A DNA stretch of 64,000 nucleotides. Source: Octopus sinensis (Eukaryota). Positions 1,822 to 64,000 of the stretch are shown in pieces. Under the pieces are notes generated by a model that was not told the origin of the DNA, ran no database searches, and was given only the letters and a program-made list of their open reading frames with translations. Numbering within the stretch: the stretch's first letter is position 1; every line of letters begins with the position of its first letter. Position numbers and translations under genes: made by a program. The stretch lies in contig NC_043001.1 in the NCBI RefSeq assembly GCF_006345805.1, forward strand, positions 29,202,001 to 29,266,000, in the 5' to 3' direction.

Positions 1822-2484
1822 TACATAGAAGTAAATATATGGTACAACGAAGTACCGATATTTACTGGAAAATAGCGAACGTAATAAATATGATGCTAAC
1901 GTATAGCTTCACCGCGTATGTACTAGCAAAAATACGTGTGTGTAACAAACTTGAAAAAAATTGTCTTACCTCCAGGGAGAACATCTGAAAGATGAAATAC
2001 CTAGAAAGGGATAATGTGGTACCGGTTTCAGATTTTTCAAGATATGTCTGCACACATATACTTGATTTATCTTCATCAGCCAACATATACCTCGACAACA
2101 TTTCAAATGTTGCCGCATCAATGCCAATACACTCGACTGAAATGCCAAAATGCTGACAGAACGAGAACAGTGAAGAAGTTTCAATAAAAATAGTAATGCA
2201 ATACGAGAGTATTGCTTTCCAGTAAAGAATAGCCCACGAGGGAAAATTATACATAGAAGTAAATATATGGTACAACGAAGTACCGATATTTACTGGAAAA
2301 TAGCGAATGTAATAAATACGACGCTAATGTATAGCTTCACCGCGTATGTACTAGCAAAAATGCGTGTGTGTAACAAACTTGAAAAAAATTGTCTTACCTC
2401 CAGGGAGAACATCTGAAAGATGAAATACCTAGAAAGGGATATTGTGGTACCGGTTTCAGATTTTTCAAGATATGTCTGCACACA
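1822..2484 (-). mobile_element. Non-coding tandem element (428-nt unit, about 1.5 copies) with a hammerhead ribozyme; retrozyme or Penelope pLTR-like
   Basis: Direct repeat with period 428 (tacatagaagtaaatatatgg at 1822 and 2250), flanked by (TA)n on both sides. A hammerhead fold lies on the minus strand. Confidence 0.75.
2014..2086 (-). ncRNA. Minimal type I hammerhead ribozyme, canonical core
   Basis: Minus strand reads ATGTTGG CTGATGA AGAT-(extended hairpin TCAAG...CTTGA)-ATCT GAAA CCGG TA CCACAT. The core is intact, helix III is palindromic (ACCGGT), the cleavage triplet is GUA, and helix I pairs. Confidence 0.8.
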
Positions 2485-2584
2485 TATATATATATATATA
2501 GAGAGAGAGAGAGATTCGCCATGATAGATCAACTGGCCACTATACCTTTTTCTATTTTCTCTCCCTGTTTATTTCTGTGTTCCT

Positions 2585-3180
2585 TTCTGCAACTGTCCTA
2601 GTTTTAGGGGTTATCAGCAATGATGGACATGTGATACCTCCTTACTTCTCTCCACAAGGCCTTAGAGTTAACTCTGCTGCCTACACTGAGGTCCTGGAAA
2701 TAATTGTTAAGCCCTGGATAAACACTGTATGCAATGGAAGGCCATATGTGTTTCATTAAGACTCTACACTATCACACATGGCTCTAGTAACACAGGATTG
2801 GATGGCTGAAAATTTTCATGATCACATAACCCCTAACATTAGGCCTCCTAATTCCCCAGATCTCAATCTATTGGACTATTACATTTGGAGTGTTGTTGAG
2901 AGAAAGGTCAATGAACATGCCCATAACATCAAAGATTCTTTGAAAGCTACCATAGTCAGAGTACTGTTCAAAATGAACCAGGACCACTTGATTCGAACAT
3001 GTAGATGATTTAGATTTCATATAGAAGCAGTTGTTGAAGCTGAAGGTAGCTTTATTGAATAACATTATAGAAAAGAAGGTTTATTTTTATTCTTATAGCA
3101 TTTTTTTATAAATAAAGTTATTATCTGTTGTTATATATCTTTTTTTTTAAAAAACAAATCTGTCCTCAAATATCTTACGC
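2585..3180 (+). mobile_element. Tc1/mariner transposase remnant, DD37D (maT)-like
   Basis: Translation VLGVISNDGH...YTEVLE...PYVFH*DS...HMA...PPNSPDLNLLDYYIW has an SPDLNPLDY-type motif and in-frame stops. Confidence 0.8.
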
Positions 3181-3542
3181 ATTTAGAGGAATGACCACCT
3201 AAGTGTGGACACCCAAATGCTAAACATAGACATCAAATCGCCAAAACCACAAAGATTTGACGTCTATGTTTAGCATATAGGGTGTCCACTTTAGTGGTCA
3301 TTCCTCTAAATTTTGTATGTAACACAATTTTTAATCTTCAGAATTTTTAAAATATGCTAAGCCACTGGTTTTAATCGATTAGTATCAATTTCTACCCTTA
3401 TTATTTAATTATATATATATATATATATATTTAATTATATATATATATACATATACATATATATATATATAATATATATATATATATATATATATATATA
3501 TATATATATTAATTATATATATATATATATATATATATATAT

Positions 3543-3922
3543 ACATGTAGGTTGTTCCATTGATTGGATCAATTGGAACCCTCAATTTCATAACCAATGA
3601 AGTGCCAGTCACTTCATATATATATCATCGTTCGTTTAGCGTCCGTTTTCCATGCTAGCATGGGTTGGACGGTTCTACTGGGGTCTGTGAAGCCAGAAGG
3701 CATCATCAGGCCCAGTCAAATCTGGCCGTAGAAACACTGCCAGATTTGACTGGGCCTGATGAAGCCTTCTGGCTTCACAGACCCCAGTAGAACCGTCCAA
3801 CCCATGCTAGCATGGAAAACGGACGCTAAACGAACGATGATATATATATGAAGTGACTGGCACTTCATTGGTTATGAAATTGAGGGTTCCAATTGATCCA
3901 ATCAATGGAACAACCTACATGT
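3543..3922. repeat. Near-perfect palindrome, 184-bp arms with a 12-nt spacer
   Basis: 3543-3726 is the reverse complement of 3739-3922; I found one mismatch. Confidence 0.93.
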
Positions 3923-3924
3923 GA

Positions 3925-60870: not shown

Positions 60871-61868
60871 ACAGGCTTGTTCTTTAGAAGTGCTGGTGCC
60901 ACATAAAATGCCCACATGGCAATGCTATGTAAATGGACCCTTGCTGGTGCCCAACACACTCTATAAAGTGGTTGGTGTTAGAAAGGGCATCCAGCCATAG
61001 AAACCATGCCACAACGACTCCCCAGCTGGCCAGCTCCTGTGAAACCATCTAACCCATGCGAGCATAGAAAATGGATGTTAAACGACGACAACGATGATGA
61101 TGATGATGATGATGATGATACATTGGTGTAAGGTGGCAAGCTGGCAGAAGCATTACCATGCCAGGTAAAATGCTTTGTGGCATTCTGCCTATCTTTTTGT
61201 TCTGTTCAAATTCTACTAAGCTTGTCTTTGCCTTTCATCCTTTCCAAGTTGATAAAACAAGTACCAGTAGAGCACTAGGGTTGATGCAATCAAATTACAC
61301 CCTACCCCCAAAGTTGCTGGCCTTGTACCAAAATTTGAAACCAATATGATACATTGGGATCCAAGGAAGATTTGGTTGCTATTTCTAGCAACAGATCAAG
61401 TAACAGCACTATAGCTCAGAGCAATGCACAGAATGTCTTGTGGTGTTTAGTTACATCACATTACATTCAAATTCTACCAAGATCAACATTGCCTTTTGTT
61501 CCTTGATAAAATAAAAGCAAGCAATGCATTAAGTTGTGGAGGCACATGGATTTGGTAGATAGAATGGATTCTTGTGAATGGATTTGGTAGATAGATAGTG
61601 AAAGAAGCCCATTGTATATATAAATATGAATATATATATATATGTATGAATGTATTTATGTATATCAGTGTTTCTCTCCCAACCATTGCTTGACAACTGA
61701 TGCTGGTGTGCTTATGTCTCTGTAACTTAGCAGTTCAGCAAAAGAGACTGATAGAATAAGTACTAGGCTTTCAAAGAATAAATCCTGGCGTTAATTTCTG
61801 TGGCTAAAAACCCTTTAAGGCATGGCTGCAGTCGAAATGACTGAAACAAGTAACAAAATATATATATA

Positions 61869-62262
61869 CTAGCAGTATCGCCCGGTGTTGCTCGGGTTTG
61901 TAAGGGAAATAATTATATAAGCCTTTTTAGAGATGTAAAGTATAATAGCCATCTCAATATGGCTAACCACAAAGGGGGAGGGGTGTTACTGTAGCTTTTT
62001 ACGTTCTGAGATTTAATAATAAATTTTAGAGAGTTACTTCCCTTATATATGTCAAAAATGGATTAAAAATGGGAAAAATTGATGGTAATTTTTTTTTTAA
62101 ATCGTAGACTCATCGTAGACGCGCGCTAATACCCAGACGGTCTCGATATGAATCACGACTATAAGATACCCGGTTTTGGTTAAACTGCACCGCAAAATGT
62201 GGGAGTAGTTAGGAATCTAAATCGTAGGAGACAGACACACAACCTCACTTTTATATATAAAG
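61869..62262 (-). mobile_element. Non-autonomous Helitron, family A, second copy
   Basis: Reverse complement of both ends of 50268-50903, including the hairpin and CTAG. Confidence 0.85.
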
Positions 62263-62359
62263 ATTTCCTCTATTTACATAATATTGAGGTCTCTTTCTTT
62301 CTTTTGTTATCTTACTGTTTTTACCAATATACATATATATATATATAAATATATATATA

Positions 62360-62682
62360 GTTACAGAGATGTACTTGCATAGCAAGTGACTTGATCTGAG
62401 ATCGTGTGCTGGAACGAAAACAGTTGCAGCGTTGAAGGTGTTTATAAGCCATTTAAGAAACACACAAAAACCGTTAGATTCACTTCAACATTTAAATTAA
62501 ATTTGTCAAAATATTTTCGTCGCTTTGAGACCGCGACCTGTTAGCACGATATTTTTGTCAGTGAACAGGTCGCGGTCTCAAAGCGACGAAAATATTTTGG
62601 CAAATTAAATTTAAATGTTGAAGTGAATGTAACGGTTTTTGTGTGTTTCTTAAATGGCTTACAAACACCTTCCACGCTGCAA
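62360..62682. mobile_element. Fold-back non-coding element (Penelope inverted-pLTR-like)
   Basis: Inverted arms 62424-62542 and 62563-62682, with (TA)n on both flanks. Confidence 0.75.
62554..62604 (+). ncRNA. Minimal hammerhead ribozyme fold with a G3:C8 swapped core
   Basis: TTTGTCA GTGAACA g GTCGC ggtctcaaa GCGAC GAAA ATAT TT TGGCAAA: 7-bp helix I, 5-bp helix II and palindromic helix III (AATATT). Confidence 0.62.
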
Positions 62683-64000
62683 TATATATATACACACATA
62701 TATATATATATGTATGTATGTATGTATGTGTGTATATGTGTATGCATGTATGTGTGTGTGTGTGCGTGTCTGTGCTTGTGATTGTCCTCCACCACTGCTT
62801 GACAACGAATGTTGGTTTGTTTACATCCCTGTCACCTAGTGGTTTGACAAAGGAAACAGATAGAATAAGTACAATGCTTACAAAAATAAAACTGGAGTTG
62901 ATTCATTAAACTACAATTCTTCAAGGCATTGCCCCAGCATGGCCACAGAGCAATGGCTGGAAAAAGCAGAAGAATAAAAGAATTGAGGGGGACCTCTACA
63001 TGGTAGCTAGACCTGGTAGAAATAGCAGCAAAATTTCCCCCAAATCACACCTTACTGTCTTATCTATGTATATATGTATGTATGAGCCTATGAGGGAGAC
63101 CCCTACATGGCAGCTAGACATGGTAGAAATAGCAGCCAAATCTCCCTCAAATCACACCTTACTGTCTTATCTTTCTGCTACTTGGATATAGGTGTTATAT
63201 TCGTCTAAAAAAACTTTCCTGTCACACACTCACGCACACGCACACACACACACACACACACACACGCACCGTCACACACACACACACGCGCACACACACA
63301 CACACACACACGCACGTTAGCTTACAATTTTATTTATATATTTGCGTGTGTATGTGTGGAAAGAGGAAGTGGGAGGCAGAGTGAAAGAATCACCACAGTA
63401 AGTGAATTAGTTTCATTTTATTCGTTGCCCACTCTGTGTGTGCGTTTGCGTGTGGTGTAAACCAGACTAAGAAAAGCATTTGACACACACACCAGAATGT
63501 GAGTTTTCTGTAAATTTTGCTTAATTGGAGTTTAAATTTTAAAAACTGGACCTGGCATGACGCGATGCATTGTACTCTTAAAAATGCCAGGTAAATTGTA
63601 ATTGAAGAAATCCTATATTGTAGATTTGTATAACTCCCAAAAGGAGGCAGATAAAATCTGCCTTTTATAATAAGAGATATATAAATATAGTTCACATTTA
63701 CAGAGAACAAAAGACGAAGATAGGTGAGGAAACAACAAGCAGGTGTATTAGTTTAATGCTCTGGAAGAATGGTAAAGTCTTTGACATTTTGAGCCTATGC
63801 TCTTTGAAAGAAGAGATTTAAGGGGGAAAAAAAAGGAAGAGAGAACAAAAAAGAAAAAAAATGGAGAGAGAAGATATGTTGGGATTAATGGTTCAACATG
63901 ATGAAATATATATACTTTTTTTCCATATATATACATATATATATATATACGAGCAACCCCCCCCCCGTCCAATGGACAGTGCTGAGTTGTCAAACATTTA

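Follow-up and report, generated by a model that had tools for sequence, protein, structure and literature searches.

Natural swaps of the hammerhead 3:8 pair in Penelope-like elements of Octopus sinensis, with a family-wide G3:C8 state

Described hammerhead retroelements and the octopus sites

Minimal type I hammerhead ribozymes (HHRs) with a palindromic helix III are already described in the pLTRs of metazoan Penelope-like elements (PLEs), including a U3-A8 family of Schistosoma mansoni with about 1,300 matches (Cervera and De la Pena 2014, PMC4209133). The motifs found in a window of Octopus sinensis, meaning the whole 64,000-nt stretch analysed here (contig NC_043001.1, positions 29,202,001 to 29,266,000), resemble them in the features given in the available part of that report: both are type I, with an extra nucleotide after position 9 and before position 10.1, a G10.1-C11.1 pair and a palindromic helix III, both are located in pLTRs, and in both cases truncated PLEs have given rise to thousands of copies, single or inverted. 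Unlike in that report, three Watson-Crick states of the 3:8 pair are found here inside one homologous clade; no mention of families with G3:C8, U3·G8 or a majority of C4, all present here, was found in its available part. Natural covariation from C3:G8 to U3:A8 has been reported for hammerheads (Perreault et al. 2011, PMC3088659), in a paper whose text on natural core variants, figures aside, does not name G3:C8. In the available parts of the literature examined, G3:C8 appears only as a laboratory mutant with partial rescue: a natural G3:C8 hammerhead is in this respect new, while natural U3:A8 was already known.

For the lizard PLE PAc of Anolis carolinensis, reverse transcription is reported to start internally, uncut RNA to be the main template, and the HHR, placed at the pLTR-ORF junction, to require protein (PMC11167929). 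The octopus G3:C8 family is similar in its junction position, its apparently uncut template, its AT-rich targets and the presence of two 3' end points in the ORF start. PAc has C3:G8, and G3:C8 is found there only as the engineered change C3G/G8C, which restores cutting in part, whereas here it is natural (PMC11167929). PAc also belongs to the Poseidon clade, while the octopus ORF carries a CX3CxxC linker of Neptune/Nematis type.

Non-LTR retrozymes (Cervera and De la Pena 2020, PMC7229834; 10.64898/2026.07.22.740005) have in common with the family at 2014 (sites and families are named by position) a tandem unit that is short and non-coding and carries a type I HHR; the 426-nt unit is slightly above the approximately 170-400 nt of retrozymes, and the other window families, unlike retrozymes, are not tandem monomers. 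The 31557 family can be likened, by description, to the schistosome SINE-like hammerhead elements (PMC6765202), as both combine a promoter-like head with a hammerhead; it differs in that its partial copies, inverted in the manner of PLEs, include the head.

Hammerhead sites of the window and their families

All eight sites proposed in the preliminary description are read, from their sequence, as minimal type I hammerheads of the PLE kind or remnants thereof, weakly so for 63780 (Table 1). Position 3 was called by a descriptor search at 62561 (helix I of at least 5, helix II of at least 4, palindromic helix III, any 3:8 combination) and read by hand at the other seven sites. With strict stems the descriptor finds one site in the window, at 62561, against none in 40 dinucleotide shuffles; two looser versions give 0.03-0.07 complementary matches per shuffle. 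Reversed-pattern genome controls gave 0 matches for the family patterns. The seven sites that escaped the descriptor are supported by family alignments, 63780 solely by its alignment with the 29837 family. Hammerhead families were absent among the matches listed (150 of 189) in an Rfam search of the window. When folded, both 62561 and a copy of its coding element, L244, form helices I and II enclosing an unpaired core (z -2.5 and -3.1, respectively); 29837 folds only weakly better than shuffles (z -1.3), and the predicted folds at 31557, 47261, 54066 and 63780 are no better than those of shuffles. The insertion context and the tandem and inverted architecture claimed earlier are also seen: 2014, 54066 and 62554 are flanked by (TA)n, direct repeats surround 12104 (12 nt) and 31557 (14 nt), 2014 has a tandem partial unit, and 12104 and 62554 have inverted arms.

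Table 1. Hammerhead motifs and elements containing them, in window positions
Feature	Positions	Strand	Description
C3:G8 hammerhead	2011..2091	-	Intact; C3 2079; helix II long; helix III palindromic
Hammerhead remnant, 12104 family	12104..12142	+	U3:A8, U3 12108; G12 absent here, kept in family
C3:G8 hammerhead remnant, 29837 lineage	29836..29876	+	C3 29841
Decayed hammerhead	31557..31600	+	Position 3 at 31561; positions 4 and 5 decayed; family consensus C3:G8
C3:G8 remnant, 29837 lineage	47258..47292	-	C3 47288; without G12
U3:A8 hammerhead	54064..54105	-	U3 54100; helix III palindromic; helix II A-U-rich; extra U 5' of G12
G3:C8 hammerhead	62553..62604	+	Intact minimal type I (descriptor match, folding, family counts); G3 62561, C8 62566, extra G 62568, helix II 62569-62587, GAAA 62588-62591, helix III palindromic, predicted cut 3' of 62597
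Badly decayed remnant, probably 29837 lineage	63773..63815	-	Position 3 about 63810; family alignment
Retrozyme-like tandem repeat	1816..2490	-	About 1.6 units of 426 nt; non-coding; between (TA)n
Fold-back insertion, U3:A8 12104 family	11979..12243	.	Between 12-nt direct repeats
SINE-like element	31379..31663	+	tRNA-like head, (AAT)n, hammerhead tail, 14-nt direct repeats
5'-truncated PLE	53945..55160	-	ORF end, 3' UTR, hammerhead and tail; (TA)n at either side
Fold-back insertion	62360..62682	.	G3:C8 PLE; two short copies of its pLTR/ORF start, between (TA)n
Composite unit, about 1.8 kb	61858..63689	.	Contains the preceding fold-back; itself multiplied

The sites had been assigned to several unrelated families. 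This is only partly right, because 29837, 47261 and 63780 align as a single lineage, and 12104 is, on sequence grounds, homologous to 62554: the two families have helix II and the ORF N-terminus in common, and the ORF start encoded in the tail of the 12104 fold-back is homologous to the one in the G3:C8 PLE. The 29837 lineage has at least 12,111 matches, with C at position 4 in 67 of the 100 first matches listed; since most of its copies are C4, CpG decay may account for the canonical appearance of the window copy.

The 12104 family is fixed for U3:A8 (2,422 matches). The clade that it forms with 62554 contains C:G, U:A and G:C families and an old U·G family, the sister lineages of the G3:C8 PLE having C3:G8, U3:A8 and U3·G8. 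In a tree of about 290 columns, with unsettled bootstrap and no outgroup, the G3:C8 clade, old loop-6 and loop-7 copies included, has a support of 100/100. The pair types in the alignment are UG (12), GC (11), CG (10), UA (9) and other (8), and a C-G/U-A swap is also present in helix II; the covariation score is inflated by related rows. In the old sister family U3·G8 occurs in 17 out of 30 loci, and C3·A8 is found in a few copies of once-mobile relatives.

U3:A8 is fixed also in the 54066 family. The window core, with its extra U, had been called degenerate; judged by the family alignment, this is the family state rather than decay. The truncated PLE to which it belongs has a GIY-YIG-like C-terminal ORF end (54817-55158), present also in several family loci; a Pfam search of this ORF fragment gave no match.

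The preliminary description had seen in these sites a non-autonomous system mobilised by GIY-YIG PLEs. The tie to such PLEs holds, given the GIY-YIG ORF of the G3:C8 element and the ORF end at 54066; the non-autonomous reading fails as a general one, because the motifs at 54066 and in the G3:C8 family belong to the ends of coding PLEs, and only 2014 and 31557 look non-autonomous. The 2014 family is young (copies 97-100% identical), and its 426-nt unit was found in 25 loci, two of which (L356 and L357) carry two full cores 426 nt apart. Its copies run through the unit junction and PLE proteins match 1 out of 25 loci, so that the family has the short non-coding tandem unit and type I HHR by which non-LTR retrozymes are defined. 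In the 31557 family a tRNA-like head is present in 17 out of 25 loci; motifs in it resemble A and B boxes, and tRNA prediction on the element called no tRNA. Both short elements are likely moved by PLEs. The link from tail to autonomous pLTR proposed earlier could be made for the G3:C8 family; no autonomous partner was found for 29837, 2014, 31557 or 12104, the last with a weak EN trace upstream in one locus (L302, E 4e-5).

The G3:C8 family and its coding element

G3:C8 is a family-wide swap in more than 4,500 copies, and the fixed state of its lineage. Exact genome matches number 4,548, against 30 with both positions changed; in one subfamily (loop-9 pattern) 1,322 matches have G3 and 71 do not, with C3:G8 in none of the 71. 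Of copies selected by upstream sequence alone, 29 out of 30 are G3:C8, and G5, A6, A9 and GAAA are intact in copies selected by flanks alone. The state is kept across subfamilies differing in loop II, position 7 and helix III; the old subfamilies were retrieved with patterns fixing core and helix II and leaving free only positions 3, 7, 8 and the flanks, so that conservation of core and helix II is built in for them. Family counts and alignments show the 3:8 swaps as fixed within families, without reversion to C3:G8.

The family core reads N3-U4-G5-A6-N7-N8-A9, G12-A13-A14-A15.1 and U16.1-H17; it lacks the canonical C3 and G8, positions 3 and 8 being swapped and complementary. Helices I and II, the extra nucleotide 3' of A9, G10.1-C11.1 and the palindromic helix III are all present. 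The variant likely still folds, and may be an active ribozyme.

Further families with a CG helix III were searched for. For G3:C8 the genome gave 66 matches, against 148 in the control, and only relatives of the known clade survived inspection; for A3:U8 the figures were 265 and, in the reversed control, 282. One recurrent A3:U8 match reads on the opposite strand as the RT coding motif RFADDIVLI, and the other recurrent ones inspected are without helix I and U-H site. A metagenome search with the G3:C8 core and helix II returned 6 stretches; the two inspected have neither helix I nor cut site and appear to be chance matches.

The family includes coding elements. In copy L244, organized as pLTR-ORF-pLTR, G3:C8 cores at 3065 and 7426, 4,361 nt apart, flank the ORF; copy L236 has a 1,042-codon open frame containing YVDD. 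The ORF has a C-terminal GIY-YIG Pfam match (25.2 bits, cut-off 22.6). The RT family was not found in a Pfam search of the whole ORF; the ORF is RT-like, with its YVDD, and its relatives are annotated as RT-domain proteins. The element therefore has the single ORF, with RT and C-terminal GIY-YIG, that marks EN+ PLEs, together with their partial tandem pLTRs, inverted 5' copies, optional tail and microsatellite targets. The Neptune/Nematis clades are defined by a CX2-5CxxC linker preceding the endonuclease (PMC8557442, in its available part), and the sequence CQSNCAVC would place the ORF, by this linker, in Neptune or Nematis. The hammerhead lies upstream of the first ATG and is therefore non-coding, which rules out coding constraint as the cause of G3:C8. 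A motif upstream of the core could be a branch point with a 3' splice site, or a transcription start.

Short G3:C8 copies derive from the pLTR and ORF start of the coding elements, truncated or inverted but near-identical in sequence; they are not independent non-coding tandem monomers. They begin just upstream of helix I (no more than 34 nt from A9 in 72 out of 78), lie at AT-rich sites and frequently have an inverted second copy; in the window insertion the long-tail arm is inverted and the short-tail arm forward. Their two fixed 3' end points, 90-99 nt (21 out of 57) and 145-155 nt (28 out of 57) after GAAA, both fall inside the ORF start. In 8 of the 9 copies starting at the 30-nt edge a G replaces the C of the element, and a cap may be read from these 9 copies. 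When copies were selected by sequence 3' of the cut site, 29 out of 30 continued into the hammerhead, and among these 30 no genomic trace of cutting was seen except in one ambiguous copy (L423). Run-off cDNA synthesis on uncut RNA is the likely origin of the short copies.

Origin of the copies and state of the ribozyme

The explanation that we favour, and hold with good though incomplete confidence, is that the motifs are PLE ends, with two short elements likely moved by PLEs, and that G3:C8 became fixed in a coding PLE lineage, where it likely keeps the 3:8 tertiary pair of a ribozyme that would be weak and dimer- or protein-assisted. The PLE protein would nick AT-rich DNA and prime internal reverse transcription from one or other of the two points in the ORF start; synthesis would run off the capped 5' end of uncut RNA, approximately 23 nt upstream of G3, and this would produce the thousands of 160-220-nt copies. 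Selection would keep the core foldable, yet tolerate weak states. Against this reading stand once-mobile relatives with weakened or non-Watson-Crick cores (U3·G8, C3·A8, C4), so that amplification may not need an efficient ribozyme.

The copy number might instead reflect DNA-level multiplication of one mutated copy within a composite unit, whose ends, in the window, may resemble Helitron-type termini. All 30 loci taken from 40 identical best matches have the 1.8-kb composite flank, in whole or in part; yet, of the first 30 G3 matches taken along the genome, just 4 have the composite junction, the others having unrelated flanks, and the coding copies are G3:C8 as well. Such multiplication is true of the window copy and its duplicates, and is refuted for the family overall, for which we give it next to no weight. 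It is improbable, too, that the short elements stand on their own as non-autonomous retrozymes, transcribed independently and passing through a circular RNA cycle. The 2014 family would fit, with its 426-nt unit, junction-crossing copies and paired full cores, as would 31557 with its own pol III-like head, and a preprint, in its available part, derives animal retrozymes from PLE pLTRs (10.64898/2026.07.22.740005). The short G3:C8 copies, however, reproduce the pLTR and ORF start of the coding element, lack a monomer junction of their own and end at the upstream edge, and 54066 follows a GIY-YIG-like ORF end: for families other than 2014 this origin is already largely refuted.

A more serious doubt, to which we give roughly one chance in three, is that the G3:C8 hammerhead may have lost catalysis altogether, surviving as a relic or serving only to bind protein or as a promoter, with drift having fixed the swap in a master element independent of cleavage. 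HHR mutants are reported to be without effect on insertion in vitro (PMC11167929) and Naiad PLEs to multiply without canonical HHRs (PMC8557442); here, the G3:C8 copies derive from uncut RNA, and U3·G8 and C4 families were amplified. Against this stand two transversions which restore complementarity, outside the ORF, and were kept while position 7, loop II and helix III changed, and the intact G5, A6, A9 and GAAA of flank-selected copies. The stronger proposal, that selection has preserved a natural, functional G3:C8 hammerhead over several waves of autonomous-PLE amplification and that one clade records a walk of the 3:8 pair through C:G, U·G, U:A and G:C, is tentative and falls somewhat short of an even chance.

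As had been anticipated, strict CUGANGA searches miss thousands of copies: in this genome, about 7,000 with G3:C8 or U3:A8 at the least, together with most of the 12,000-copy C4 lineage. PLE hammerheads are weak cutters, dispensable for insertion in vitro, and their role is the point on which these families bear. A 3:8 swap outside the reading frame, kept while loops changed, is evidence of selection on the catalytic fold. From the U·G and C4 families one sees what degree of core weakness an element tolerates, and the natural core states provide a ready panel for cleavage assays. If a selected, working G3:C8 hammerhead is indeed present, the fitness landscape of the hammerhead core could be read from nature in this clade, which would also give direct access to the purpose of PLE hammerheads.

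The hammerhead-like sites of the window

All eight hammerhead-like folds of the preliminary description (2014, 12104, 29837, 31557, 47261, 54066, 62554 and 63780) are present at those positions, in a window where microsatellites and short repeats abound. Only two hammerheads, at sites 62554 and 2014, are intact; in the remaining six, bases of the core or of a helix have been lost. A descriptor that leaves core positions 3:8 free matches the window at 62554 only and gave no match in 40 shuffles; looser versions gave 0.03–0.07 complementary matches per shuffle. The other sites are supported by family alignments, not by the descriptor: these alignments bring back GAAA, helix II and a palindromic helix III. 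An Rfam scan of the window shows no hammerhead among the best 150 of 189 matches.

Features in the window (G000:C5:29202001-29266000) and in loci fetched from the genome (L-numbers)
Feature	Position	Strand	Remarks
Intact hammerhead, site 62554	62561	+	position of G3
Intact hammerhead, site 2014	2079	-	position of C3
1.8-kb composite	61858-63689		Penelope-like element (PLE) fold-back, SINE-like pieces
Inverted copy of composite's right end	48947-49217		99% identity
SINE-like element, site 31557	31379-31663; L151-L175		tRNA-like head, hammerhead tail
29837 lineage	29836-29876; L479-L498		most abundant hammerhead lineage seen
5S rRNA match	1552-1670	+	full-length, 97 bits; begins immediately 3' of a (TA)n run
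Near-perfect palindrome	3543-3922		arms 187 nt, centre 6 nt; built from a common repeat
Broken ORFs	47942-48741; 21231-21749; 28355-29386	+; -; -	presumably like piggyBac transposase and LINE reverse transcriptases
G3:C8 fold-back copy	L039 1170-2200		inserted into apparent RT region of another PLE
Paired G3:C8 cores	L244 3065; 7426		
Candidate hammerheads of other families, beside PLE copies	L239 ~8814; L247 ~234	-; +	one C3:G8, one U3:A8
Old sister family and few related copies	L433-L462; L266-L293		amplified with U3·G8 wobble; C3·A8 common to the few copies

G3:C8 as the state of a coding PLE family

G3:C8, the swapped core of site 62554, is the state of its whole family. With any loop of 3–14 nt, the pattern has 4,548 matches in the 2.72 Gb genome, against 30 with both positions changed, mostly of another family: the swap is fixed. 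One loop-II subfamily pattern gives 1,322 matches with G3 and 71 without; C8 is retained in 69 of these 71, none being C3:G8. Where G3 is present, 91 of the first 100 listed matches have C8 as well. When copies are chosen by upstream sequence alone, 29 out of 30 are G3:C8. The same core appears in loose-end consensus lines of contigs from three organisms, one possibly the assembly's own source.

The copy in the window is atypical, lying within a composite amplified at the DNA level, found at many genomic sites with 92–98% identity and with ends that we take to be Helitron-like. The 40 identical best matches are due to this multiplication. Taking G3 matches in genome order, only 4 of the first 30 show the composite junction; the others inserted independently, often in (TA)n and often together with an inverted arm.

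The family is a coding PLE. Longer copies have a GIY-YIG domain upstream, which bears out the suggested link to GIY-YIG PLEs; the ORF carries YVDD and a CX3CxxC linker, a type given for Neptune and Nematis in the available text of PMC8557442. Cores flank the ORF in L244, where one frameshift interrupts it, and a frame of 1,042 codons is open in L236, so that the description of the system as non-autonomous is not supported for this family. Inverted 5' copies are found in L238, L239, L241 and L242. A Pfam search of the whole ORF found no family, and the best named relative found for the protein comes from Octopus vulgaris, with 61% identity. The ORF has its first ATG about 55 nt downstream of the predicted cut site: the G3:C8 core is therefore non-coding.

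Related and other hammerhead families

Of the families described as several and unrelated, that of 12104 (2,422 genome matches) and that of 62554 are one clade, holding several 3:8 states. An extra G and helix II are common to both, with one C-G/U-A swap in helix II, and the N-terminus encoded by the 12104 tail matches the start of the G3:C8 ORF protein at 50% of 28 residues (pairwise E 4e-7), an old G3:C8 copy (L400) bridging the two. U3:A8 is fixed in the 12104 family (28 of the first 30 matches), and ten relatives in the clade are C3:G8. In a 54-row tree, midpoint-rooted and with bootstrap not settled, U3:A8 copies are nested among C3:G8 relatives, while old and young G3:C8 copies all fall in one 100/100 clade. 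An old sister family has U3·G8 in 17 of 30 loci chosen on the 3' flank, several being truncated before the core. Over 50 rows the pair is UG in 12, GC in 11, CG in 10, UA in 9 and other in 8, a tally that describes states and is no test of significance, because the rows share ancestry and the patterns used to choose them fix the rest of the core. One genome search for an A3:U8 family found none.

Sites 29837, 47261 and 63780 align to a single lineage of at least 12,111 matches; of the first 100 listed, 67 have C at position 4 of the core (hand count). A natural U4C viroid variant is known. The 54066 family is fixed for U3:A8: out of 117 matches, the first 100 include 94 with this pair and 98 with an extra U before G12. 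Its hammerhead follows a GIY-YIG-like ORF end, to which Pfam gave no score. The 2014 family is a young, non-coding tandem unit of 426 nt; its 25 loci include truncated and inverted copies and show two points at which 3' ends fall. The 31557 family has a C3:G8 consensus, and 17 of its 25 loci carry a tRNA-like head; inverted partial copies take in the head and look as if moved by a PLE. A literature search on SINEs of this build returned one listing, which is unrelated.

Short copies, ribozyme activity and known systems

Short G3:C8 copies end 90–99 nt past GAAA in 21 of 57 cases and 145–155 nt past it in 28, the mapping reference stopping at 155 nt; both clusters fall within the ORF start. Their 5' ends lie at most 34 nt from A9 in 72 of 78 copies (a few rows being duplicates or composite copies). 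There is an edge at 30 nt, where G replaces the element's C in 8 of 9 copies; this G might, on these few copies, be a copied cap. When 30 copies are chosen by the sequence downstream of the cut site, 29 continue into the hammerhead, and one starts at the cut site, within helix I microhomology. In public contigs, depth over the short-copy stretch is about a thousandfold above the ORF interior. For a lizard PLE, the accessible part of PMC11167929 gives an internal RT start at two sites, uncut RNA as main template and a hammerhead requiring protein; the end pattern agrees with such a start, and short copies of the G3:C8 PLE may arise by this route.

The G3:C8 motif is slightly more probably an active ribozyme than an inactive one. 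Amplification of the U·G and C4 families was counted against a working ribozyme, and hammerhead mutants are without effect on insertion in vitro, according to the same portion of PMC11167929.

As far as the texts were available, PLE hammerheads, with a U3-A8 family among them (PMC4209133), a natural U3:A8 core (PMC3088659), G3:C8 as a laboratory mutant (PMC11167929, PMC3884650) and retrozymes (PMC7229834 and a 2026 preprint) are already described. Literature searches did not find a natural G3:C8; Lunse et al. 2017, outside their scope, may hold this variant. Within the literature searched, neither a lineage-fixed G3:C8 core nor a within-clade 3:8 series was found in print. Compared with the hammerheads in the available part of PMC4209133, the octopus PLE has the same kind of ribozyme and element, its core being lineage-fixed as G3:C8. 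The observation is real, and both the ribozyme and the element that carries it belong to known kinds.
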